From Candidatus Nanopelagicales bacterium (lineage in GTDB: Bacteria > Actinomycetota > Actinomycetes > S36-B12 > GCA-2699445): a stretch of 64,000 nt of DNA. A program made the translations under genes and the position numbers. Shown here piece by piece: positions 12,276-64,000 of the stretch (position 1 is its first letter; each line of letters starts with the position of its first letter). The notes beneath the pieces are model-generated. The model was not told the DNA's origin, did no database searches, and saw nothing but the letters and a program-made list of their open reading frames with translations. The stretch covers positions 271,443 through 335,442 of the forward strand of contig JBAOHO010000013.1 in the NCBI GenBank assembly GCA_037045355.1. The letters are read 5' to 3'.

Positions 12276-12592
12276 GAGTTACCTCCGGGGTTTCTTCTTG
12301 CTTGTGGGACGTACGATGTGGGCTCGACTGTAGCCAGTGGTCGGCGGGCAATCGGGCAGCGACTCGATATCTTTCGTGGCTGGCAGGAGTTCCTTCGAAT
12401 CCCCCCTTTCCCGTCTTTGTCTCGCTCCGGAATCAGGGCGTCACGGACCGTGTTTCCCGCGAATTCCGTCGACTGACCGAAATGCGGTTGTCCGCGAAGA
12501 CGGCCCCGAGGGGCCGATGAGGCCTATCTCACTTATGTCGCTGAAATGTTGAAATTGTGTCGCAAAGGCAAGAACCCTCTCTCGAGTACCTG

Positions 12593-12628
12593 CCCGACGA
12601 GAAGCCCGACGAGAAGCCCGACGAGAAG
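12593..12628. repeat. 12-bp tandem repeat x3 (cccgacgagaag)
   Basis: Direct reading. The array lies just upstream of the preferred start at 12644. If translated it reads PDEKPDEKPDEK. Confidence 0.9.
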
Positions 12629-13292: not shown

Positions 13293-13307
13293 GCGTAGTT
13301 TCCCCTC

Positions 13308-14174
13308 ATGTGCAGGCTGTTCGGACTCCACGCCGGCGGGCATGAGGTCCACGCCTCCTACTGGCTGGTCGATGCGCCAGACAGCGTCCTGGTCGAAAGC
13401 CACCGAAACCCCGACGGCGCCGGAATCGGTTGGTGTGAATCGCGCGGTGACTGCCACGTCGTGAAGTGGGGAAGAGCCGCCTACCGCTCGGCGCAGTTCG
13501 AGCGAACCGCTCAGAGCGTGACCGCGAACACCGTGGTGACCCACGTGCGGGCGGCCACCACCGGGTCGGACAGCAAACGCAACAGCCACCCGTTCCTCAT
13601 CGAGGACCGCCTCGTGGCCCACAACGGAGGCTTCGGGGATCTGCCGGCTGTCGAGCGCCGGCTCGGCGACTACCTCCGTTTCGTTCACGGGGACACCGAC
13701 TCGGAGCGATTCGCGGCCCTGATTGCGATGGAATCCGATCGGCACGGCGATGTCACAACGGGCATCACAGCTGCGGCTCAATGGCTCGCCACCAACGTCC
13801 CGCTCTACTCCCTGAACATCGTGGTGACCGCTCCGGGCCACCTGTGGGCCTTGCGCTACCCCGATCAACGGGCTCTGCATATCGCTTCGCGCGTGGTCAC
13901 GGCCAAGACGGACGATCAGGACTCCGATGCCGGTTGGCATGGATCCTCAGCGGTTGCCCGGCACGACTTCACCACGAGCGGCCCCGACTCCGTGCCCATC
14001 GTGGTCCTGGCCAGTGAGCGGATCGACGGGTCCTCCGACTGGCGGATGCTCGATCCGGGCGAACTGGTGCATGTCGGCCCCGATCTGCAGATCACGTCCA
14101 CGACCGCGGTGCCCGCAGCCCCGGCCCACTTCCACCTCCCCGCAGGCGTGGACCACAACGACGACAGTGACTGA
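13308..14174 (+). CDS. class II (Ntn) glutamine amidotransferase family protein
   Basis: N-terminal MCRLFG places the nucleophile Cys at position 2. HVRAATTG and HNGG blocks are present. Confidence 0.75.
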   Translation: MCRLFGLHAGGHEVHASYWLVDAPDSVLVESHRNPDGAGIGWCESRGDCHVVKWGRAAYRSAQFERTAQSVTANTVVTHVRAATTGSDSKRNSHPFLIEDRLVAHNGGFGDLPAVERRLGDYLRFVHGDTDSERFAALIAMESDRHGDVTTGITAAAQWLATNVPLYSLNIVVTAPGHLWALRYPDQRALHIASRVVTAKTDDQDSDAGWHGSSAVARHDFTTSGPDSVPIVVLASERIDGSSDWRMLDPGELVHVGPDLQITSTTAVPAAPAHFHLPAGVDHNDDSD

Positions 14175-14277
14175 TCGGGAACTGATCGAGGACTGATCGG
14201 GAACTGATCGAGGACTGATCGGGAACTGATCGAGGACTGATCGGGGGTTGATCGGGGGTTGATCGGGGGCTGATCGG
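14171..14277. repeat. 11-bp phased array, 10 copies of (c/t)TGATCG (22-bp super-unit in first six copies)
   Basis: Motif starts at 14171, 14182, 14193, 14204, 14215, 14226, 14237, 14248, 14259 and 14270, exactly 11 bp apart. The array begins in the upstream stop codon and ends 74 nt before the POT transporter start. Confidence 0.95.
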
Positions 14278-14350
14278 TATCGATCGACAAATGACCGGGC
14301 AACGGGGCGGCAACTGATCGGGGTTCCGGACAACAACTCTCGTCAGGACT

Positions 14351-15859
14351 ATGGTCGAGAACGTGGCTCAGACCGCCGTGCCCTCGCAGTTGGACGACAG
14401 GGGCTTCATGGGGCAGCCCCGTGCGCTGTCGACCCTCTTTTTCACCGAGATGTGGGAGCGCTTCTCCTACTACGGCATGCGCGCGCTGCTGGTGCTGTAC
14501 CTCACCGCTCCGCTGGTGTCGGACACCGGCTACGGCCCCGGGCTTGAGATCGACAAGGGCGACGCGATCGCCATCTACGGCGCGTACTCGGGACTCGTCT
14601 ATCTGACTCCGATAGCCGGCGGCTGGATCGCGGACCGGATCGTGGGTGCACGCCGCACCGTGTTGTACGGCGGCATCGTGATCGCCTTGGGCCACTACTG
14701 CATGGCGGTGCCGCTCGAGCCCACCTTCTGGGTGGGACTGCTCCTGATCGCTCTCGGTACCGGATTGCTGAAACCCAATATCTCCGCCATGGTGGGCGAC
14801 CTCTACAGCGAGACCGACACGCGCCGCGACGCCGGCTTCTCGCTGTTCTACATGGGCATCAACATCGGCAGTTTCGCGGCTCCCTTGGTCACCAGTTGGG
14901 CGGCTCAACAACGCGGGTTCCACTGGGGCTTCGCGATCGCCGGAATCGGCATGACTCTCGCAGTGATTCAGTATGTCCTCGGGTGGAAGCGACTCCATGG
15001 TGTCGGCGTCAAGGCTCCCGACCCGGCGAACGCAGCGGACCGAAACCGTTTCCTCATGATCCTGGTGGGGGCGCTGGTCTTCATCGGTGCCTTGGCCCTG
15101 GCGATGAGTCGGTTCACCGAGGGGTCCATTTTCGACGATGTGGCCACGGCCATCACGATCTTCATCCTCATCGTGCCCTTCGTCTACTTCACACAGTTGT
15201 TCCGGCGCAAGGACTACACCGAACGGGAGCGGGCGCACGTGCGCGCATTCGTGTGGATCTTCGTGGCGGCTGCCGCGTTCTGGATGGTGTTCGAGCAGTC
15301 GGGTTCCACCTTGACTCTGTTCGCCGAGGACGTCACCGATCTGACGTTCGGAACCTGGGAGATGCCGGTCGGCTGGCTTCAGTCGGCAAACCCGCTGTTC
15401 ATCATCATCTTCGCCCCGATCTTCGCCGCGCTGTGGACCAAGTTGGCCGACCGGGCACCCAGAACGTCGATCAAGTTCGCCATCGCTTTGGTGGGTGTCG
15501 GGATCTCGGTTCTGATGCTGGTGATCCCCATGTCGGCGTTCCAGAACTCCGGTGCCCAGGCTGCGCTGTACTGGATCCTGGGCACGTACCTGCTCCAGAC
15601 CTGGGCGGAGTTGCTGTTGTCACCCACGGGCTTGTCGGCTACCAGCAAACTCGCCCCAGAGGGTGCCAGCGGGCAGATGCTGGCTCTGTGGTTCGTGGCC
15701 ACCTCCGTGGGCACCAGCATCGGTGGTCAGATCGGCAAGTTCACCGCCGACAACCCGGTCAATACTTTCCTGCTCAGTGCGGCAATCCCCATGGCGATTG
15801 CGGTTGTGCTCTTCATCTTCCACAGAGTTGTCAATCGAAGTATGGATCCGGTCCACTGA
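14351..15859 (+). CDS. POT/PTR2-family di-/tripeptide:proton symporter
   Basis: FFTEMWERFSYYGMRALLVLYL signature, polytopic, 502 aa. Confidence 0.9.
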   Translation: MVENVAQTAVPSQLDDRGFMGQPRALSTLFFTEMWERFSYYGMRALLVLYLTAPLVSDTGYGPGLEIDKGDAIAIYGAYSGLVYLTPIAGGWIADRIVGARRTVLYGGIVIALGHYCMAVPLEPTFWVGLLLIALGTGLLKPNISAMVGDLYSETDTRRDAGFSLFYMGINIGSFAAPLVTSWAAQQRGFHWGFAIAGIGMTLAVIQYVLGWKRLHGVGVKAPDPANAADRNRFLMILVGALVFIGALALAMSRFTEGSIFDDVATAITIFILIVPFVYFTQLFRRKDYTERERAHVRAFVWIFVAAAAFWMVFEQSGSTLTLFAEDVTDLTFGTWEMPVGWLQSANPLFIIIFAPIFAALWTKLADRAPRTSIKFAIALVGVGISVLMLVIPMSAFQNSGAQAALYWILGTYLLQTWAELLLSPTGLSATSKLAPEGASGQMLALWFVATSVGTSIGGQIGKFTADNPVNTFLLSAAIPMAIAVVLFIFHRVVNRSMDPVH

Positions 15860-16690: not shown

Positions 16691-16750
16691 TCTCGGGGCC
16701 GGGTGTCGGGTCTCCGGGGCCGGGTGTCGGGTCTCCGGGGCGGGTGTCGG
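16691..16750. repeat. about 21-bp tandem repeat, about 3 copies (tctccggggccgggtgtcggg)
   Basis: Direct reading gives copies of 20, 21 and about 19 nt in the divergent intergenic region. Confidence 0.85.
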
Positions 16751-28934: not shown

Positions 28935-30222
28935 CCCGTAGTTTCCTCGGAACACCGGCAACCGCTCCCGGTCCGCTGGGGCCCCAGATGCTGCGGTCCA
29001 CCATGATGATCCGACGGGACCCGCTGGCGTTCCTTGCGCAGATGCGTGACGACTACGGCGATGTGGTGCAGTTCCCCATCCCGCGTCCGGCGACGTACCT
29101 GGTGGCGTCTGCGTCTGCGACCCAGCAGGTGCTCGTGGGGCGCCCTGGCGGATACGACAAGGACACCATCCAGTACCGCTCGTTATCGCTCGTCACGGGC
29201 GATGGGCTGCTCACCGCGACCAATGACCACTGGCGCGGCCAGCGGCCCGTGGTGCAGCCCGCGTTCCATCATTCCTTCCTCCCGGCGGTCGGCGAGGTCG
29301 TCGCGCAGGAGACCGGATGGCTCATCGACCGTTGGGGGGACTACCGGCCGGCGCTGTCGTCGATGTCGAGCTGGCCATGATGGATCTGGCGCTTCGGGTC
29401 GTCGGCCGGTGCCTGTTCGCCGACGATCTCCGCGGCTCGACTGCGGCGTTGGCTCACGCGACGCTGGAGGCGCTCGACGTCGTGATCAAGCGCTCCCGGG
29501 TGCCGATCGCCATCCCGGCTGCGTGGCCGACTCCGGCCAACCGACGGCTGGACCGCAGCATGCGGGCTCTCGAATCGGCCGTCGAACGCCTGATGACGCA
29601 ACGGAACCCCGAGCCAGGGAGCACGCTGCTCCTCGACTTGATCCTCAGTCAACCGGACTGGAGCAGACGGCAGATGCGCGACCAGATCGTCACGTTCCTG
29701 GTTGCCGGCCACGAGACCGCCGCCAGCGCAATGACCTGGGCCCTGTGGCTCCTCGCCCGTGACCCCGACCGACAGGTTCCTCCGTCAGGAGTGTCAGCGG
29801 CGAACTACGCCCGCGCATGTGCCGAGGAGGCCCTGCGACTGTTCCCACCGGCATGGGTCATCAGTCGCAACGCCGTGTTGGCCGATGAGATCGAGGGGAT
29901 CGAGATCCCGGCCGGGGCGCTGGTGATCACCAGCCCCTTCCTGCTGCACCGGGACAGTCGTTACTGGCCGGATCCGGATCGGTTCGACCCCGGTCGGTTC
30001 GCCGACCGACTGGCAGCAGCCCAGCGGGCGGCCTACCTGCCCTTCGGCGCGGGGCCGAGACTATGCATCGGACGCGACTTCGCCCGCTGGGAAATGACCC
30101 AGGTCATCGAGCAGTTGCTGGCTGCGTTCGAGTGGTCCGTGGTGACGCCGCAGCCGCCGATGTTGCCGTCTGTCACCTTGCGTCCAGTCGGTGGACTGCA
30201 GCTGGCGATCAGTCGTCGGTGA
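28931..30222 (+). pseudogene. cytochrome P450, interrupted by a -1 frameshift in a G6 run
   Basis: Two ORFs (28931-29380 and 29317-30222) together give a full P450: AGHETA I-helix, EEALRL, FGAGPRLCIGRDFA heme loop. The frame switches at gggggg 29334-29339. The ATGA overlap with ung is at 28931. Confidence 0.8.
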
Positions 30223-30224
30223 AC

Positions 30225-30662
30225 TCACCGTCCGACGTTGACGTACTCGACCAGAGCGTTGCGCTCCTCTTCGAGTTCGCCGAGTCGGCTCTTGACGACG
30301 TCGCCGATGCTCACGATCCCGATGATGTGTTCGTCGCTGTCCAGCACTGGGACGTGGCGTACCCGTGAGGTGGTCATGAGTCCCATGAGATCGGCGGTCG
30401 TGGCCGATGGGGGCGCGCAGGTGACGGTCGGCGTCATGATGCTGGAAACCGGCTGTTCGAGGATCGCAGCCCCACCCGTCGCGAGGTGGCGTACGACATC
30501 GCGTTCGGAGACGATGCCGACGACCGTCTGGCCGTCGTCGGACACCACCAGGGCGCCGATGTTGAACTGAGCGAGTTTCGCCAACAGTTCCGTGACGGTG
30601 GCGCTGGGTCGGACAGTCTCCACGGCATTGCCCTTTGACTGCAGGACATGTTCGAGTTTCAT
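30225..30662 (-). CDS. CBS domain pair protein
   Basis: 145 aa with two CBS-like halves (IGALVVSDDGQTVVGIVSERDV, VRHVPVLDSDEHIIGIVSIGDV). Confidence 0.85.
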   Translation of the reverse strand: MKLEHVLQSKGNAVETVRPSATVTELLAKLAQFNIGALVVSDDGQTVVGIVSERDVVRHLATGGAAILEQPVSSIMTPTVTCAPPSATTADLMGLMTTSRVRHVPVLDSDEHIIGIVSIGDVVKSRLGELEEERNALVEYVNVGR

Positions 30663-30695: not shown

Positions 30696-31493
30696 TTACT
30701 CAGTGGGGACGTCGGTGCGCAGCACCCGGAGGACTTCTTCATGCAAATGTCCGTTGGTCGTAACAGCGCAGCCCCCGGTGATGGCGTCGCCACCGTCGTA
30801 GGCGGTCATGCGGCCACCGCTCTCGGTCACGATCGGCACGAGTGCGGCCATGTCCCACGGAGCCAGAAACGGTTCCGCCGCGATGTCGACAGCCCCCTCG
30901 GCCACGAGGGCATGCGACAGGAAGTCGCCGTAGCCCCGGGTGCGCCAACACGTGTCGATCAGGGCCCGCAGACCCGGCCAGGAACCGCGCTCCCGCCAGC
31001 CCAGCTCGTCCGAATAGGAGAACGAGGCATCGCTCAACTGACTCACCGCGCTGCACGTCAGGGAGCGCACAGTGTCATCGACATCGCGGGTGTGCGCACC
31101 TGATCCGGCGGCGGCCCACCACCGTCGGCCGAGCGCCGGCGCCGAAGCGACACCGACAACAGGTTCGCCTGCCTCGACGAGCGCCAGCAGCGTGCACCAG
31201 ACAGGCACTCCGCGCAGGTAGTTCTTGGTGCCGTCGATCGGGTCGATGATCCACTGCCGCGATGTGTCGCCGGCGGATCCGAACTCCTCGCCGAGGATGC
31301 TGTCATCCGGCCGGTGGGTGCTCAGCATGGTCCGAATGGTCTGCTCGGCGCGTTGGTCGGCTTCGGTCACCGGCGACATGTCCGGCTTGGTCTCCACGTG
31401 CAGGTCGCCAGCGAGATAGCGCGACATCGTCACCTCGTCGGCAGCGTCCGCGATCCGCAGCGCGAGTGTGAGGTCGTCGTCCCATCGGTTCAC
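30696..31493 (-). CDS. hisN: inositol monophosphatase family protein, likely histidinol-phosphatase
   Basis: GTG at 31493 (VNRWDDDLTLALRIAD). Motifs: ETKPDMSPVTEAD, WIIDPIDGTKNY, WDMAA. The GTGA overlap with the upstream stop is at 31490-31493. The upstream part of the ORF-track frame is translated repeat sequence. Confidence 0.8.
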   Translation of the reverse strand: MNRWDDDLTLALRIADAADEVTMSRYLAGDLHVETKPDMSPVTEADQRAEQTIRTMLSTHRPDDSILGEEFGSAGDTSRQWIIDPIDGTKNYLRGVPVWCTLLALVEAGEPVVGVASAPALGRRWWAAAGSGAHTRDVDDTVRSLTCSAVSQLSDASFSYSDELGWRERGSWPGLRALIDTCWRTRGYGDFLSHALVAEGAVDIAAEPFLAPWDMAALVPIVTESGGRMTAYDGGDAITGGCAVTTNGHLHEEVLRVLRTDVPTE

Positions 31494-33019
31494 GATGTGG
31501 ATCCGTTCTCGTGGGTGGGGGATCCGTGCTCGTGGGTGGGGGATCCGTGCTCGTGGGTGGGGGATCCGTGCTCGTGGGTGGGGGATCCGTGCTCGTGGGT
31601 GGGGGATCCGTGCTCGTGGGTGGGGGATCCGTGCTCGTGGGTGAGGGATCCGTGCTCGTGGGTGAGGGATCCGTATTCGGCGAGGAAGAGCGCCTGGGCG
31701 CGGATCGAGCGTTCGAGTTCGGTCAGGTCGACACTCTCGTTCGGGGCGTGGATCCGGGCCAGGGGGTCCTGGGCGCCGGTCCCGACGACTTCGAGGTCGG
31801 GGAACTCGTCGATCAGGTTGGCGAGGAACGGGACCGCACCGCCGACGCCCTGCTCGGTCGGTTCGGTGCCGTAGGCGGCTCGCATGGCGCGGGCATAGGC
31901 CTGGTAGGCGCGACCGCCCGTCGCGACGAGTGTCCCGGGCGCGGGGGCGTCGTGCTCGAACTGGATGGCCAGGCCCCACGGGGCGTGGCTGCGCAGATGC
32001 TGCTCGAGCGCTGCCATCGCGTCGTTGGGATCCACCCCGGCGGGAATCCGGACACTCACCTTCGCCCGGGCCATCGGGACCAGGGCGTTGGGGGCGGTGT
32101 CGACAGGGGGAGCGTCCAACCCGACCACGTTGACGGAGGGTCGGGAGAACAGCCGGGAGGCGATCGAACCGGAGCCGATGAGCGGGACGTCGGGCAGGAC
32201 TCCGGCCACCGCCCGGTAGGCCTGCTCCGGATAGTCGGCGCCGGGCCAGTCACTGCCCGGAATACCGTCGATCGCGCAATCACCGTTGTCGTCCACGAGT
32301 GTGCTGAGCAGTGTGATGAGCGCCATGAGCGCGTCGGGCGCCGGGCCGCCGCACATGCCGCTATGCCGGGGCTCGGCGAGAGTTCGCACGGTGACCACGC
32401 CGTCGACGATGCCGCGCAGGGCGGTCGTGAACGTGGGGAGTCCCAACTCGACAGGTCCCATGTCGTTGATCACGGCGGCGTCGATACCCGCGAACTGGTC
32501 GGGGTGCGTGCGTGGCCATTCCTCGAAAGCGCCCCCGAACTCCTCGGCCCCTTCGAGCAGGATCCGCAGTGTCACCGGTGGGGTCGCGCCGAATGCCCGC
32601 ACGCAGGCGATGTGCGTCACGACACCGGACTTGTCGTCAGCGGCGCCGCGCCCGTAGAGGCGGCCGGCCCGCTCGGTGGGATCGAACGGTGGGGAGTCCC
32701 ACTTGGTGTCGTCCCCCCCGGGTTGAACGTCGTAGTGGGAGTAGAGCAGAACGGTGGGGGCTCCGGGGGGGCCGGGCAGGTCGGCGCGAACCGTGGGAGC
32801 GTCCTCGGGGCCGCCGATCACTTCGACATCGGCCCCAGCTGCGCGCAGGAGTTCCGCGCACGCGTCGGCGCACTCGCGGACCGGGGCGGGATCGTAGCCC
32901 GGGCCGTTGATCGAGGGGATGCGCACGAGTCGTTCCAGGTCCGCTCGAACCTGGGGCATCAGCGAAGAGATGCGGTCGAACAACTCATGGGAATCTGTGC
33001 TGGAAGAGTTTGAGGCCAT
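31490..33019 (-). CDS. M20-family dipeptidase with C-terminal His-rich heptad-repeat tail
   Basis: ATG at 33019 (MASNSSSTDSHELF). LLYSHYDVQP and GRGAADDKSG motifs. The last 60 or so residues are 8 x GS(L/P)THE(H/N), encoded by the 21-bp array. Confidence 0.8.
   Translation of the reverse strand: MASNSSSTDSHELFDRISSLMPQVRADLERLVRIPSINGPGYDPAPVRECADACAELLRAAGADVEVIGGPEDAPTVRADLPGPPGAPTVLLYSHYDVQPGGDDTKWDSPPFDPTERAGRLYGRGAADDKSGVVTHIACVRAFGATPPVTLRILLEGAEEFGGAFEEWPRTHPDQFAGIDAAVINDMGPVELGLPTFTTALRGIVDGVVTVRTLAEPRHSGMCGGPAPDALMALITLLSTLVDDNGDCAIDGIPGSDWPGADYPEQAYRAVAGVLPDVPLIGSGSIASRLFSRPSVNVVGLDAPPVDTAPNALVPMARAKVSVRIPAGVDPNDAMAALEQHLRSHAPWGLAIQFEHDAPAPGTLVATGGRAYQAYARAMRAAYGTEPTEQGVGGAVPFLANLIDEFPDLEVVGTGAQDPLARIHAPNESVDLTELERSIRAQALFLAEYGSLTHEHGSLTHEHGSPTHEHGSPTHEHGSPTHEHGSPTHEHGSPTHEHGSPTHENGSTS
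31499..31680. repeat. 21-bp tandem repeat, 8 copies plus partial (ggatccgtgctcgtgggtggg)
   Basis: Direct reading gives units at 31499, 31520, 31541, 31562, 31583, 31604, 31625 and 31646, with a degenerate copy from 31667. Confidence 0.95.
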
Positions 33020-33068: not shown

Positions 33069-34067
33069 TCAAGTTGCCAGGGAGCGCAGCATCCGCCGCA
33101 CCGAGTCGAGTCGGGCGACGCCGTCCGGGCCCGCGTTGCCCCCTGCCACCCAGGCATCGAGACCGCAGTGCGGCGGTTCGTGGTCGCAGCCGCGCGGGCA
33201 GTCGATCTCGCCGGCGGCGAGTTCGCCGAACGCTGCGACCACGTCCTCCGGATCCACATGGCCCAGCCCGAAGCTGCGCAGACCCGGGGTGTCGATGATC
33301 CAACCGCCACCCGGCAGCCGCAGTCCCACCGCGGACGTCGACGTATGTCGTCCGCGACCGGTGACCGCGTTGACCGATCCGATGTCCCGGTCGGCGTCGG
33401 GGACCAGACGGTTCACGAGGGTGGACTTGCCGACCCCCGATTGTCCGATGAGCACCGTGACGTGTCCGGCGAGCCGCTGCGCCAACTCGTCAGCAGGCTG
33501 TGCGCGGGTTGTCGCGATTGCCGCGAGGCCGAGTGGAGCATAGGCATCGGCCAGAGCGGAGGCCGGACTCAGGTCTGTTTTCGTGACGATCAGCAGCGGG
33601 GTGAGCCCGGCCGTGTAGGCGGCCACCAGGCAGCGGTCGATGAAGCCTTCGCGCGGCTCCGGCTCGGCGGCGGCGACGACGATTCCCAGGGTGTCCGCGT
33701 TGGCCACGACGACACGTTCGACCGGGTCAGTGTCGTCAGGTGTGCGCCGCAGGGCGGTGCGTCGGGGTTCCAGCCGAACGATGCGGGCGAGGGTCCCCGG
33801 TTCCCCTGTCAGGTCGCCCACGAGTGCCACGCGGTCACCCACCACGACCGACCTCCGGCCGAGTTCACGTGCGCGCACCGCCGTGACCACTGCCGATCCG
33901 GCTCCCAGGTCGACGGTGAGTCGACCCCGATCGACTGCGACGACGAGTCCGACCGTGGCGTCGTCATGAGCTGGTCGTTCCTTGGAACGGGGTCGGGAGC
34001 TGCGCCCAGGACGGACCCGGACGTCGTCTTCGCTGTACTCGTGAGACGCGTTGCGGGACCGGGACAC
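33069..34067 (-). CDS. rsgA: ribosome small-subunit-dependent GTPase A (RsgA) portion; no stop separates it from aroA
   Basis: Candidate internal GTG at 34067. EDDVRVRPGRSSRPRSKERP N-terminus, GQSGVGKSTLVN P-loop, DTPG, Cys/His zinc knuckle CPRGCDHEPPHCG. 332 aa from the GTG. Confidence 0.8.
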   Translation of the reverse strand: MSRSRNASHEYSEDDVRVRPGRSSRPRSKERPAHDDATVGLVVAVDRGRLTVDLGAGSAVVTAVRARELGRRSVVVGDRVALVGDLTGEPGTLARIVRLEPRRTALRRTPDDTDPVERVVVANADTLGIVVAAAEPEPREGFIDRCLVAAYTAGLTPLLIVTKTDLSPASALADAYAPLGLAAIATTRAQPADELAQRLAGHVTVLIGQSGVGKSTLVNRLVPDADRDIGSVNAVTGRGRHTSTSAVGLRLPGGGWIIDTPGLRSFGLGHVDPEDVVAAFGELAAGEIDCPRGCDHEPPHCGLDAWVAGGNAGPDGVARLDSVRRMLRSLAT

Positions 34068-35363
34068 TAGTTGCCGGGCTCCGGTTACGGCGTGTGCCCA
34101 CGCAGTGGAGAATCCTGGGAACGTCTTGGCGGTGGTCGCAACGTCTTCGATCAGGACCCCCGGTACGCGAGCTCCGAGGATCGCGCCGCACGTGGCCATC
34201 CGGTGGTCGCTGTAGGTCGACCAGAGGCCCCCGTGCAGGCGCGCGGGACGGATGGTCAGTCCGTCGCTGTCGGCATGCACGTCGCCTCCGAGGGCGTTGA
34301 GTTGACCGGCGATCGCCCGGAGCCGATCGGTCTCGTGCCCCGCGATGTGACCGATCCCGGACAACCGTGACGGGGAGTCGGCGAGCGCGGCCACCGCGGC
34401 GATCGTGGGGACGAGTTCGCCCAGGTCGCGTAGGTCGGCGTCGACTCCGCTGATCGCTCCCGTCCCGGTGATCGACATACCGTCGGGACCGGAGTCGAAG
34501 CGAGCACCCATGTCGATGAACACCTCCCGCAACTGCCGGTCAGGTTGCAGGCTGTCGCTCGGCCAGTCGGGGACCTCGATGCGTCCATGGGTGATCAGGG
34601 CGAGTGCCGCGAACGGCGCGGCATTGGACAGATCGGGTTCGACGGTCCGATCGAGGGCGCGGATCGGACCCGCCGTCACCGACCAGTCTGCGTTCGTGCG
34701 GTCCGATGCGTGCGCGTCGGTGGCCACCCCGTGCTGATTGAGCATGCGCATCGTCATGGCGATGTGGGGCAGCGAGGGAATCGGCGCGCCCCGATGGCGC
34801 ACAGTCACGCCCCGATCGAACCTCGCGCCGGACAGGAGCAGCGCGCTGACCACCTGGCTGGTGGTCGAGGCATCGACATCGACGACGCCACCGGGCACAT
34901 GACCGATGCCGTGCACCGTGAAGGGAAGCCGGGTGGCATCGGCAGCGATGCGGATGCCCAGGCTCCGAAGCGCTGCCAGAAGCGCTGCCATCGGGCGCTC
35001 CCGGGCCCGGGGATCGCCGTCGAAGTGGACATCCGCACTCGTCAGGGCTGCCACGGGGGGGACGAAACGCATGACGGTCCCGGCCAGTCCACACTCCACC
35101 GACACCGCGCTCGTCGCAGTGCCGGGCGTTACGGTGACCGAGGTCTCGGGGGATCCCGCCACCTCGGCCCCGAGGGCTCGCAGCGCTGTGAGCATCAGGT
35201 CGAGATCGCGGGACCCGGCGGGAAGCCCCGCGACGGATGATGTCCCGTCGGACAGCGCCGCCAGCAGCAACGCCCGGTTGGCAACGGACTTCGAACCGGG
35301 CACCGTGACCCGCGCGTCCACCGGCCCGTTGGCCGTGGGAGCGGGCCAAGGATCTGTCACCAC
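34068..35363 (-). CDS. aroA: 3-phosphoshikimate 1-carboxyvinyltransferase (EPSP synthase) portion of a 764-codon continuous ORF
   Basis: GTG at 35363. VPGSKSVANRALLLAAL, conserved body through TAKTFPGF. The frame then runs on into rsgA with no stop. Confidence 0.85.
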
Positions 35364-35489
35364 TTGCCTAACTCCGCGGAGACGTTGCCTAACTCCGCGG
35401 AGACGTTGCCTAACTCCGCGGAGACGTTGCCTAACTCCGCGGAGACGGTGCCAAGCTCCGGGGTGAGAGTGCCGGATTCCGGAGTGATG
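35364..35489. repeat. 21-bp tandem repeat, 4 perfect + 2 degenerate copies (ttgcctaactccgcggagacg)
   Basis: Units at 35364, 35385, 35406 and 35427, with degenerate copies at 35448 and 35469. The array abuts the aroA start codon, and the proximal copy supplies GGAG 8 nt upstream of the GTG. Confidence 0.95.
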
Positions 35490-35760
35490 GCGGCGGGCTT
35501 GATCACGGCACCGAACAGCGTCATCCGCAGGCGTTCGTCCTCCACCACGGGGGTGAGCCTATCCGGGCCGAACCCCATCGCGAGGGTGCTCGCGAAGGCC
35601 GGAATCGGCTGGTGAGGTTAACCTTTGTTGAACCCCCGACCCCGGAGCGGCTTCCGGCCCGGTGATCGGGCAGGATAGAAGCACGGCGTTTGCGATCACG
35701 GATCGATGCCGCTACGGGTGCACGCCGCGCCTGCATGCATCGTGTGGAGACGGAGTAGAA

Positions 35761-52973: not shown

Positions 52974-53090
52974 ATCGGAGGAATTGGCTCGGTATCCGGA
53001 GGCCTTGGCTCGGTATCCGGAGGCCTTGGCTCGGTATCCGGAGGCCTTGGCTCGGTATCCGGAGGCCTTGGCTCGGTATCCGGAGGGATC
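52974..53090. repeat. 21-bp tandem repeat, about 5.5 copies (ggctcggtatccggaggcctt)
   Basis: Units at 52986, 53007, 53028, 53049 and 53070, with a partial unit from 52974. Confidence 0.95.
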
Positions 53091-59351: not shown

Positions 59352-59982
59352 ACGTCCACGCATCGTCCTGGCCTCCCGCAATCCGGGCAAGATCGCCGAA
59401 CTGCAGCGGATCCTGGCGTCCGCTGATCTCGACGTGGAGGTTGTGGGATCAGAGGCTTTCGCGGACCTGCCCGACATCCGGGAAACTGGCCAGACGTTCG
59501 CCGACAACGCCGCCCTCAAGGCAGAGACTGTCGGACGACATACAGGACTGATCGCCATCGCCGACGACTCGGGCCTTACTGTCGATGCGCTGAACGGAAT
59601 GCCCGGAATCCTCTCAGCCAGGTGGAGCGGCCGCGATCGAGATGATGATGCCAACGTGGACCTGGTTCTGGATCAGATGAGCGACGTCCCCGATGACCTC
59701 CGCACCGCTGCCTTCCGCTGTGCGGCCGCCGCGTTCCGCCCTGGAACCGAACCCCGCCTCGAGGTGCGCGAGGCGGAAGTCCGGGGAGTGCTGCTGCGCC
59801 AGCGCCGCGGAATCGGTGGCTTCGGATACGACCCGGTGTTCCTGCCCGATGGCCACGCGCTGACGACCGCAGAGATGGAACCGGCCGAGAAGGACGCGAT
59901 CAGTCATCGGGGACGCGCCCTGCGCGACCTCATTTCGGTCATCCGTCCCTGGTTCGGCCGACCTGGGGGCCGTGGTTGGTAG
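59344..59982 (+). CDS. rdgB: dITP/XTP pyrophosphatase (RdgB/HAM1)
   Basis: [32 protein letters not shown]. Confidence 0.9.
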
Positions 59983-59992
59983 CGTCGCGACC

Positions 59993-61393
59993 ATGGGCCA
60001 ACGGCTGGGTCGAACTGCGGTCTTTCCCGTCATGGGTTCCGCCTGCCTGGTGGCGGTGACACTGTTCGCTCCGGCGGCCCAGGCAGCGTCGGAGCCACGC
60101 CCGCCGGGTCACGGTGGTACATCTCGCCTGTGGTCGTTCCAGTCGGAATCCGCACCGCCGTCGGCACGGCAGCAGGCCCGTCGTGATCTTCTGCGGGGAC
60201 CGCTCACCGGAGGGCTGCGACCCGGGGGCCGCCAGAGCAACGAACCGTACGTGCCCCAGCAGGGCTGTTACGCCGGGGAACTGCCGGGAGTCGCGGCATT
60301 TCGGGAGCTGCTGTTGGCGACTTATCCGCGGCCTGAGGAGTCGCTGCACGTCTACAACATCACGCGCGGCTGCAACGTCGACGGGATCAGCGAGCATGAG
60401 GAGGGGCGGGCGCTGGACTTCGAGGCTCACACCAACCGTCCCCGAGAGGACGCCCAGGCGCGGCATCTGCTGCGGTGGCTGACCAAGAACGGCGGCTATC
60501 ACGCCAAGCGGTTCGGCCTGATGTACATCATCTACGACCGACACGTCTGGGGTGTCTACAACCAGAGTTGGCGGCGCATGTCCAACCGCGGCAGTGTCAC
60601 GGACAACCATCGGGATCATGTGCACTTCTCATTCACCTGGAACGGGGCGCTGCGGCGTACCGCGTATTGGACCGGCCGGACGCCACCGACCGACTTCGGT
60701 CCCTGCCCGAAGTGGCGAGGACACTTCGCCCCGGTAGCTCCCGAGCGGCTGCAGGGCAACCCCCGGCATCATCCGTGCGGCTCGCCGCGGCCGATTCCGG
60801 ATCGCTGGCGGTTCGGTCCGTCCGTCATGTACTGGCAGTCGGGCAAGCCGGTGCGATGGGTCCAGCAGTTCCTGACCGAAGAGGGGCAGTACACCGGACT
60901 CGTCAATGGCGAGTTCGGGTCGCTGACGTTCCAGGCGGTGCAGCGCTACCAGTGGGCGGTGGGCCTGCCGGGCACTGGGGTGTGGGATCCGGCCACCCAG
61001 AACAAGTCGAAACGAGCCGTCGGGGTCCGCACGCCGAGCGACATCGTGGTGGACCCACTGCCCACCACTGTTGCCCCGGATCAGGAGTTGGCGATCGCGG
61101 CCAGTGTCGGTGGTCGGTGGCCCGAACGACCGCGCTCCGTCAGGCTCGAACGGTTGGCCCAGTCAGGCCAGGTTGACCAGCCAGGTCAATCGGGGGAGTG
61201 GGAGATCGTCTCCACTGCCCTCAGCGAGCCAGGTGGCGCGGTGCTGTTCACAACTGCCGTTCCGGTGGGGGAGTGGTCGTACCGCGTGGTCGCCGAGCAG
61301 ACCAGTTACGCCAAGCGGGTCGTGTCAGAGCCCCAGCAAGTGTCGGTTGTCCCCGACTCGGTCACGCCCATTGACCCGTCGTCCACCCCCTGA
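59993..61393 (+). CDS. secreted LAS-type zinc peptidase with peptidoglycan-binding domain
   Basis: ATG at 59993 with signal peptide. SEHEEGRALD (Hx5D-type) and HRDHVHFSF. PG_binding_1-like segment (VRWVQQFL...NGEFGSLTFQAVQRYQWAVGLPGTG). Confidence 0.65.
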   Translation: MGQRLGRTAVFPVMGSACLVAVTLFAPAAQAASEPRPPGHGGTSRLWSFQSESAPPSARQQARRDLLRGPLTGGLRPGGRQSNEPYVPQQGCYAGELPGVAAFRELLLATYPRPEESLHVYNITRGCNVDGISEHEEGRALDFEAHTNRPREDAQARHLLRWLTKNGGYHAKRFGLMYIIYDRHVWGVYNQSWRRMSNRGSVTDNHRDHVHFSFTWNGALRRTAYWTGRTPPTDFGPCPKWRGHFAPVAPERLQGNPRHHPCGSPRPIPDRWRFGPSVMYWQSGKPVRWVQQFLTEEGQYTGLVNGEFGSLTFQAVQRYQWAVGLPGTGVWDPATQNKSKRAVGVRTPSDIVVDPLPTTVAPDQELAIAASVGGRWPERPRSVRLERLAQSGQVDQPGQSGEWEIVSTALSEPGGAVLFTTAVPVGEWSYRVVAEQTSYAKRVVSEPQQVSVVPDSVTPIDPSSTP

Positions 61394-61482
61394 CACCCGA
61401 CACCCGACACCCGACACCTGACACCTGACACCCGACACCCGACACCTGACACCTGACACCTGACACCTGACACCTGACACCT
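61392..61482. repeat. 7-bp tandem repeat x13 (gacacc[c/t])
   Basis: Units occur every 7 bp from 61392. The variant order is CCC TT CC TTTTTT. The array starts within the upstream stop codon. Confidence 0.95.
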
Positions 61483-61569
61483 GACGCAGCGCGCAGATCA
61501 CCCGGGCGCTCGTCGCGCGCTGATGCGATTGTTGTCCCGGCGCTGCTCATCCGTGAGCACGTGAGCATC

Positions 61570-62467: not shown

Positions 62468-64000
62468 TTATCTCATTCGTCGTTGTGGCCACCTGTGCGC
62501 TGCATTGGGACACGACATGTCGTGTGCCGGCAGTGACCGGGTGACGAGATAGCGATTCACCCGCCGGTCCACACAACGAGACTGGGACAAGAGGTAGTCA
62601 CCGTGCTGCCCGCCCACGTAGGTCACAACCCTGCTCCGTGGGAATGCTCGGGCCATCGCGGCGGTCCACGCGTAGGGGGTCCGTGCATCCCGTGTCGAAC
62701 CGAGAAGGAGCAGTCGCGCCGACTGGTCGGTACCGAAATCGATGGGAACTGGGTCGATAGGAACAGTCAAGCCCTCACACTGGGTGGCCATCATGAGCCC
62801 GTTCTTCCACCCGGAGATCGGCGCCTGGATCCTGGTTGTCCGGGCAATCGCATCTTGCTCAGCCGCCGTGGGTCGGTCCGCATAGTCGATGCAGTCGATC
62901 ACTGCGGTGGCACCGCCCAGACCTTCGGTCGTAGTTCCGGGTCGCAACCGGTCCAAGGCCTTCCGGGCGTTGCTGGCCTCGGGGCCTGCGCCCCCCAAGG
63001 CGATCGTGATGCGGTCGAGCCACCGCGCAGCGGAGACCCAGCTCGCTGAACCAACCCGTTCGAAGCCCGCCGATTCCTCCAACAGGTTTCGCAGGTTCCA
63101 GCGAGTGAACGAGCGTCCGGAAGGCAGTCGCAGCGGTTGCTCGGACAGTGTTCGGTGCGCGCGCCGGTATTGCTCAGAGGTGCCGGCGAAGACCTGGAAC
63201 ATCATGTCGAGTGCGGAGTCGGCCGCAGTGCCGTAACCCAGGCTGAGATCGGTGATGGATCCGTTGGGGTCGATGCTTCCGTCCAGCACCAGAGCTCGGA
63301 CCCGGTCGGGAAACGTCAGTGCGTAGGTGTATCCGATCCGCGTGCCGTAACTCATCCCCCAGTAGGTCAGGCTTCGATCACCGACTGCTGCGCGCATCGC
63401 ATCGAGGTCCCGCACAACCATGTTCGTGCCCATGTGGTCGATGATTCGTGGGTGGTTGCGCTGACATCGGGCGTTCGCCTCGGCTGTGGCGGCGCGGTAG
63501 TCGGCAGTGATCGTCAGCCAGGACACAGGTCCGGTGGCAGGAAGGCCGATCTCTCCTGGTTCGCAGTCGTCGATCCCTGCGGAGCGTCCGACTCCGCGCG
63601 GGTCCCAGGTGACGAAGTCGAACCTGTCAGTGACAGTTCGCGGCAACATCTCGTAGATCATCGGTGCGGTGAGCAGACCCGAACCGCCGGGCCCACCAGG
63701 GTTGAAGAAGAGTGACCCGATGCGCCCGCGGGGTGAGCCTGTGCTGCGAGCCCGGAGCATCGCAATGGGGGTCGTGCCTTGCTCGGGCCGGTCCCAATCG
63801 AGCGCCGCAGTCAACGTGGCGCACTGGAAGTTGCGCAGCTCGGCACCACGGCACCGGCGCCATCGCAGAGTTCCGGCGGACTCTCCGCTCGCGCTGGTGA
63901 CGGTCGGCACGGAGCTGGTGGCGCCCGGCGCGGGGGCTCCGGTCGGGTAGGGCGCGGGGGCTCCGGTCGGGTAGATGGTGATGCTCGGCACGGAGGTGCC
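62468..64000 (-). CDS. secreted alpha/beta hydrolase, TAP-like (5' end probably beyond window)
   Basis: FFNPGGPGGSG oxyanion region and GMSYG nucleophile elbow. Paralog of the 786-2255 gene. The frame is still open at the window edge. Confidence 0.7.
   Translation of the reverse strand, partial: GTSVPSITIYPTGAPAPYPTGAPAPGATSSVPTVTSASGESAGTLRWRRCRGAELRNFQCATLTAALDWDRPEQGTTPIAMLRARSTGSPRGRIGSLFFNPGGPGGSGLLTAPMIYEMLPRTVTDRFDFVTWDPRGVGRSAGIDDCEPGEIGLPATGPVSWLTITADYRAATAEANARCQRNHPRIIDHMGTNMVVRDLDAMRAAVGDRSLTYWGMSYGTRIGYTYALTFPDRVRALVLDGSIDPNGSITDLSLGYGTAADSALDMMFQVFAGTSEQYRRAHRTLSEQPLRLPSGRSFTRWNLRNLLEESAGFERVGSASWVSAARWLDRITIALGGAGPEASNARKALDRLRPGTTTEGLGGATAVIDCIDYADRPTAAEQDAIARTTRIQAPISGWKNGLMMATQCEGLTVPIDPVPIDFGTDQSARLLLLGSTRDARTPYAWTAAMARAFPRSRVVTYVGGQHGDYLLSQSRCVDRRVNRYLVTRSLPAHDMSCPNAAHRWPQRRMR
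63928..63975. repeat. 24-bp tandem duplication inside the coding region (YPTGAPAP x2)
   Basis: gcgcgggggctccggtcgggtagg occurs twice, read directly from the sequence. Confidence 0.85.

Follow-up and report, generated by a model that had tools for sequence, protein, structure and literature searches.

The stretch of DNA analysed here, 64,000 nucleotides of contig JBAOHO010000013.1 from Candidatus Nanopelagicales bacterium (hereafter the window, meaning the whole stretch), carries an array of 21-bp tandem repeats at the 3' end of an M20A-family metallodipeptidase gene, directly before the point where the stop codon of this gene overlaps the start codon of hisN. The array encodes a His-rich tail on the enzyme, which an earlier interpretation made from the sequence alone (the sequence-only reading) had taken for a metal-capturing module of variable copy number. 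Our analysis points instead to a young, lineage-restricted in-frame minisatellite, or variable number tandem repeat (VNTR), which is most likely a near-neutral passenger in a dispensable C-terminal extension.

Tandem Repeats Finder (TRF) placed this array first among those of the window (31499-31674; period 21, 8.4 copies, 98% matches, score 331), and the unit was found eight times with at most three mismatches, whereas shuffled sequences are expected to yield 0.01 occurrences. Such head-to-tail, near-identical units far above chance are one mark of a VNTR. Read on the minus strand, the array runs GCC GAA TAC, (GGA TCC CTC ACC CAC GAG CAC)x2 and (GGA TCC CCC ACC CAC GAG CAC)x5, and closes with GGA TCC CCC ACC CAC GAG AAC and GGA TCC ACA TCG TGA, so that the protein ends in ...AQALFLAEY, GSLTHEH x2, GSPTHEH x5, GSPTHEN and GSTS. 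Peptides expected from the tail include THEHGSPTHEH, LTHEHGSLTHEH and the C-terminal ...THENGSTS. The hexamer GGATCC flanks the array on both sides; this BamHI-type palindrome also lies in every unit, amounting to nine sites in 174 bp (31499-31672).

Across the array, no stop codon interrupts any minus-strand frame, and two of the plus-strand frames are open as well. In this genome of 68-70% GC, the GC content at third codon positions (GC3) over the array is 0.83 in the M20 frame and 0.66 and 0.57 in the other two, compared with 0.85 in the M20 gene body, although the value for the M20 frame is by itself a weak indication of coding, since one 7-codon unit is repeated. However, no stop codon separates the conserved C-terminal helix of the M20 protein (...AQALFLAEYG) from the array, and ribosomes that complete the enzyme necessarily traverse it; as judged from this frame, translation of the array is not in doubt. 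Moreover, tail-less orthologues end at the same overlap with hisN, which indicates that the stop/start overlap is ancestral and that the array would be an in-frame insertion just before it. These two observations remove the reservation of the sequence-only reading that coding was not proven by sequence. The rest of its description was borne out: TRF and the minus-strand translation agree on eight in-frame copies at the 3' end of the M20 gene; the GS(L/P)THE(H/N) x8 tail does add 15 His and 8 Glu; the TGA at 31490-31492 that overlaps the hisN GTG at 31491-31493 can be read directly in the sequence; the array, in frame and open through to the M20 stop, is neither intergenic nor disruptive; and the three open frames it had reported are those of the minus strand, besides the two on the plus strand. 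Two other coding assignments were rejected. A plus-strand open reading frame (ORF) at 31511-33013 (500 amino acids) is an antisense shadow of the M20 gene, with a GC3 of 0.73 over the flank versus 0.83 in the M20 frame. A hisN start further upstream, within the array, was discarded because the hisN frame (IPHPRAR) has no start codon there, and both the profile and the N-termini of orthologues fit the GTG at 31493.

The gene that carries the array is, by its profiles and structural relatives, an M20A, CNDP/DUG1-like dipeptidase, and its downstream neighbour is hisN, as the sequence-only reading had proposed in both cases. The M20 product is identical to NCBI MEI2716926.1 (P0121 here), annotated as 'MAG: M20/M25/M40 family metallo-hydrolase [Candidatus Nanopelagicales bacterium]', and matches PF01546 (Peptidase_M20, E 7.6e-26), PF07687 (M20_dimer, E 2.6e-10) and NCBIfam PRK07907 (497 bits, cutoff 300). 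Its best relative in the PDB is 3pfe, deposited as a succinyl-diaminopimelate desuccinylase (E 1e-30), followed by the M20A dipeptidases CNDP2, CNDP1/carnosinase and DUG1 (E 1e-26 to 1e-29). The window protein has H95, D128, E159, E160, D186 and H424, which correspond to the metal ligands and catalytic residues of M20 structures, and an alignment of 30 sequences shows no variation at these positions. The family models end at about residue 450. In an AlphaFold2 model built with the 30-sequence alignment, the body has a mean predicted local distance difference test score (pLDDT) of 83 and a predicted template modelling score of 0.81, with a pLDDT of 34-38 for residues 458-509, and the tail is accordingly predicted to be disordered. 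HisN scores 283.9 bits against the TIGR02067 equivalog model (cutoff 275.15), and VNRWDDDLTLAL at its N-terminus lines up with MTSNWNDDLQLAL and VTSLDEDLALAM, with which orthologues start.

To place the tail phylogenetically, we compared the enzyme with its relatives. Among the best 120 protein clusters, the tail was present only in the window's own 90% cluster, and the other 119 nearest clusters (432-484 amino acids) had no His-rich or repeat tail, with at most four His in the last 40 residues. No repeat tail was found either in 84 orthologous reference-genome loci (43-71% identity), where the genes stop 4-18 residues past the ...FL helix; altogether, such a tail was seen in 0 of about 200 orthologues examined. 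The two nearest tail-less orthologues (L009 and L010/L013; 71-72% identity) share the aroA-rsgA-M20-hisN-CBS synteny with the window, and their M20 genes end 7-12 residues past ...FL at a 4-bp ATGA/GTGA overlap with hisN, which argues that the tail was not inherited from the common ancestor and that both the enzyme and the coupling can do without it. From these comparisons, the tail is young and species-restricted, and it occupies a segment that is naturally variable in length. The coupling of M20 and hisN is itself seen only in the closest clade, which comprises L009, L010/L013, L014 and the window's species; a functional link between the two genes, for example through a His-dipeptide pathway, was set aside, because the synteny holds only in that clade and is absent in other orthologues.

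Within the species, an uncultured wastewater actinobacterium, the array is polymorphic. The 90% cluster comprised 12 sequences from wastewater and activated-sludge assemblies, and a scan of Joint Genome Institute metagenomes with the left flank returned only two contigs, one of them already known. With L for a GSLTHEH-type unit, P for a GSPTHEH-type unit and a following n to mark that the unit ends in N, the alleles were LPn (2 units), LLPn (3), LLPPn and LLLPn (4), LLPPPn and LLLPnPn (5), LLLPPLn (6; with a synonymous change of TCC to TCT), LLLPPPPn (7) and LLPPPPPPn (8, the window), their flanks being about 99-100% identical. The variation among units thus amounts to two non-synonymous changes and one synonymous change. 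All 12 members of the cluster end in ...GSTS at the hisN overlap, and the frame is kept in every allele; indeed, because the 21-bp unit has no stop in the M20 frame, every allele preserves the frame, the overlap with hisN and translation. The copy-number variability that the sequence-only reading had thought plausible is found within one species (2-8 units, in differing L/P orders).

We envisage an ancestral gene that ended ...FLAEY-GSLTHEN-GSTS before the stop and in which two GGATCC hexamers lay 21 bp from each other; a duplication between them would most probably have started the array. Its site, a short, variable and unstructured extension after the last M20A helix, would have left room for later expansion and contraction by replication slippage or unequal recombination, and the 98% matches among units indicate that the expansion was recent. 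The dispensability of this end of the protein would explain why the tail is tolerated, and the genome is one that gathers tandem arrays at gene boundaries. Indeed, arrays with a score of at least 60 and a period of at least 6 reach a density of 2.97 per 10 kb in the window, compared with 1.12 in other actinobacterial loci (502 kb) and 0.61 in close relatives (49.5 kb); eight arrays with a TRF score >100 lie within the 64 kb, and most window arrays are at gene starts, gene ends or in short intergenic gaps.

A second in-frame 21-bp array, VSAELGN x4, lies in the same operon, where it forms the 3'-terminal part of a small ORF of high GC3 (35357-35617) before aroA. This ORF ends VSAELGN x4 ...GKW, and its TGA overlaps the aroA GTG (GTGGTGA). 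The array is likewise polymorphic, strain L002 having a single diverged copy and a called gene of 42 amino acids. The small ORF could be a leader peptide, given its single terminal Trp codon and the shikimate-pathway gene that follows, or a boundary VNTR. The recurrence of this layout twice in one operon with unrelated units suggests a mutational tendency filtered by constraint, and argues against a purpose-built His module; it also argues that at overlaps only in-frame, stop-free arrays survive.

Further arrays in the window include those at 2294-2371, 2441-2516, 12592-12628, 16694-16750, 52976-53086 and 63893-63974, with unrelated units. A period of 21 was the commonest (6/19 window arrays versus 6/56 in the comparison loci), even where the arrays seem non-coding, which is suggestive only. 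An 11/22-bp array at 14169-14322 (ACTGATCGGGA/ACTGATCGAGG), each unit of which carries a TGA, runs from the stop region of a plus-strand ORF (13299-14174) and fills nearly the whole gap to the next (14318-15859). At 61389-61485, a 7-bp array, C(C/T)GACAC x14, starts from the stop codon of a plus-strand ORF (59864-61393); its T-bearing units carry TGA, so that stops recur in all frames.

Several points weigh against a near-neutral passenger. Neither a 0- nor a 1-unit allele occurred among the 12 cluster members and the two metagenome contigs, and some retention of the tail by selection may have to be allowed for. A functional role is not far-fetched by analogy, considering the link between His-rich low-complexity regions (LCRs) and metals (PMC6821194) and the di-metal nature of the host enzyme. 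The origin by slippage at GGATCC is deduced from the boundaries of the array and is to that extent conjectural. Finally, copy numbers from short reads are unreliable, and contigs of low coverage may have been shortened.

The reading that best survives beside the preferred one is that the tail is an adaptive, tunable metal arm, in which (GSxTHEH)n would bind Zn, Co, Ni or Cu, with copy number setting the capacity in metal-variable wastewater; the arm might supply the di-metal M20 site with metal, either in the same subunit or in the partner, or else buffer or inhibit that site. The composition of the tail (25% His, 13% Glu, 17% Ser, 15% Gly, 15% Thr, 10% Pro and no basic residues) and its H-E-H spacing suit such a function, the predicted disorder could allow it to reach the active site, the M20 di-metal ligands are intact, and at least two units are kept in all sampled strains. 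On chemical grounds, a flexible acidic tail with repeated H-E-H should show weak binding of Zn, Ni, Co or Cu in vitro. His-rich LCRs in prokaryotes are statistically associated with, and enriched in, metal-binding proteins (PMC6821194), and the His-rich C-terminus of mycobacterial GroEL1 is reported to bind Cu(II) (PMC10170517). However, the tail is missing from every orthologue examined, including the closest with identical operon structure, and the same genome forms similar arrays without His at other gene boundaries. Its His density is about half that of Co/Ni-linked LCRs, the cobalamin-linked ones averaging 53% His, 23% Asp and 9% Glu (PMC6821194). Units that differ by the two non-synonymous changes and the one synonymous change show no signal of purifying selection. 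Searched alone against Pfam and the PDB, the tail gave no meaningful match (the lone PDB match, at E 2.2, is noise), and a tail-only search of a 5.8-billion protein database returned 413 word-sharing candidates, none with E <= 10, an uninformative outcome given that the composition defeats HMMER scoring. A literature search for His-rich tails on M20 dipeptidases gave no precedent among the papers that it covered. We regard a metal arm as unlikely, and the sequence comparisons give no sign that selection built the tail or maintains it for metal binding. Thus, the gene identities, the frame and the copy variability of the sequence-only reading stand, but its functional metal-capturing module, for which the composition is the argument, is not supported at the sequence level. 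The finding that this reading had itself named as telling against it, in its sequence half, is what the 71-72% identical orthologues present, since they end before any array with hisN still coupled by a 4-bp overlap.

A more ambitious version would treat arrays at stop/start overlaps as a lineage-specific route to evolvable protein ends, with the M20 array acting as a length-tunable metal-binding arm, through which the metal loading or activity of a di-zinc dipeptidase, and perhaps also the number of ribosomes passing into hisN, would follow the metal or histidine status of the wastewater habitat; we consider this decidedly improbable.

Still less credence can be given to a cis-acting translational sensor for hisN, in which ribosomes would pause at His codons, in the manner of a leader peptide, when charged tRNA-His is scarce, and hisN expression would change as a result. 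Fifteen His (CAC) codons do fall within the last 58 codons before the GTGA overlap with a histidine-biosynthesis gene, and the coupling by overlap is conserved in the clade. Yet ribosomes held up ahead of a coupled start ought to make hisN less translated when His is scarce, so that the effect would have the wrong sign; the His codons are interrupted by others (H-E-H) rather than consecutive; the array is absent from relatives with the same coupling; and the VSAELGN array next to aroA has no aromatic codons in its repeat, so that a link between repeat and pathway is not general. No terminator-like or antiterminator site, promoter-like site or Rfam element was found around the M20/hisN junction, where the RNA is weakly structured (z -2.2), and an attenuator or riboswitch was rejected on the same grounds. 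The GGATCC palindromes provide the sole predicted RNA pairing within the array.

The last rival holds that a single allele is fixed and that assembly error accounts for the length of the array or for all of the polymorphism; it was weighed against the assemblies themselves. Short-read de Bruijn assemblies do collapse or break at such arrays, and a further contig (L096) ends inside an LLLPPP... array. The 2-unit allele comes from a Logan contig, a k=31-type assembly whose flanks match the 8-unit window with one mismatch in 2600 nt; because the L-specific and N-specific bases never fall together within one 31-mer, this contig may be a collapsed 8-unit allele. The window in turn carries errors: compared with three independent short-read assemblies, it differs by 1-bp homopolymer indels, CC to CCC at ~34078 and C7 to C6 at ~29340, which are probably long-read consensus errors. 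These indels suggest that the window stems from a long-read assembly, in which the 176-bp array was probably spanned by single reads. Moreover, LLL-type arrays and the TCT variant cannot come from collapsing the window's array, and eight contigs, which come from different samples and were built with different assemblers, share LLPPn, their flanks being ~1% off the window. A pure artefact is hence very hard to credit, and from the unit orders we conclude that the variation in copy number and unit order is real, the exact counts of the short alleles being uncertain. Of the two indels, CCC at ~34078 fuses aroA and rsgA into a 764-amino-acid ORF (the three assemblies call two genes), and C6 at ~29340 splits a cytochrome P450 gene, leaving only its C-terminal part at 29317-30222.

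The features are listed in the table below. All genes of the aroA-rsgA-M20-hisN-CBS block are co-oriented. In the window's species, the gap between rsgA and M20 is only 49 bp; in relatives, a DUF2231 gene, absent from the window's species, lies between the two (1955-2419 in L009 and 1980-2429 in L010, in opposite orientations).

Table. Coordinates of the repeat arrays and genes of the M20-hisN operon in the window.
Feature	Positions	Strand	Description
M20A-family metallodipeptidase gene	31490-33019	minus	509 amino acids; catalytic and dimerisation domains at ~residues 1-449, repeat tail at 450-509
Tail-coding stretch	31493-31672	minus	60 codons: units 31505-31672 (eight x 21 bp), GGATCC 31499-31504, ACATCG 31493-31498
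GTGA overlap of M20 stop (TGA) and hisN start (GTG)	31490-31493	minus	Translational-coupling junction
hisN, histidinol-phosphatase, inositol-monophosphatase family	30696-31493	minus	265 amino acids; TIGR02067, PF00459
CBS-domain protein gene	30225-30662	minus	PF00571; closes the conserved aroA-rsgA-M20-hisN-CBS block
aroA (EPSP synthase) and rsgA	33069-35363	minus	Single 764-amino-acid ORF in the window; Pfam
Second in-frame 21-bp array, VSAELGN x4	35364-35460	minus	3' end of the small high-GC3 ORF (35357-35617) before aroA

If the array is a mere product of slippage, it offers a clean natural example of the birth of a potentially metal-binding low-complexity segment: the segment arises in frame, at a C-terminus that is dispensable, and the start codon of the next gene, which overlaps, constrains it further. 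If, on the other hand, metal handling does depend on copy number, the array would be one of few bacterial VNTRs that tune a metalloenzyme, supplying natural graded 'His-tags'. The array also illustrates that metagenome assemblies from short reads cannot be relied upon at such sites. Either way, knowledge of M20 enzymes and of histidine biosynthesis is unchanged.

The array belongs to two known kinds, coding or boundary VNTRs and His-rich low-complexity tails. His-rich tails or stretches are known in UreE, HypB, SlyD and CooJ. With these, and with the C-terminus of mycobacterial GroEL1, the window protein shares a terminal, disordered His/acidic segment on a metal-related folded protein, for which metal binding is probable by analogy. 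Orthologues keep tails of the UreE/HypB/SlyD type, however, and these tails usually have a much higher density of His and belong for the most part to metal-delivery proteins, whereas the tail described here is a perfect 7-amino-acid repeat with 25% His, restricted to one species, variable in length and attached to the metalloenzyme itself; conservation among orthologues was not seen across the 119 clusters and 84 loci. The body of the enzyme (~residues 12-456) is homologous to CNDP2, CNDP1 and DUG1 and shares with them the conserved H/D/E/E/D/H residues, but the identity is distant and none of the three has a repeat tail. With hisL attenuation, the array has in common many His codons translated directly upstream of a histidine-biosynthesis gene; unlike in hisL, these codons end a 509-amino-acid enzyme rather than a short leader ORF, the His residues are not consecutive, alternative hairpins and a terminator are lacking, the arrangement is not conserved and the sign is wrong. 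As to VNTRs, Mycobacterium tuberculosis provides an actinobacterial precedent: it has tandem repeats of variable copy number within genes and at their boundaries, and assemblies from short reads get them wrong (PMC12817950). Its in-frame PE/PPE and promoter repeats share with the window array near-identical units, copy differences between strains, a location at gene edges and misassembly by short reads, and the in-frame repeats also share a unit length divisible by three, which keeps the frame (PMC12817950). Unlike PE/PPE, a surface/antigen family, the window array resides in a cytoplasmic enzyme of housekeeping type, and it lies 9 nt upstream of a stop/start overlap, so that it must keep both the frame and the coupling.

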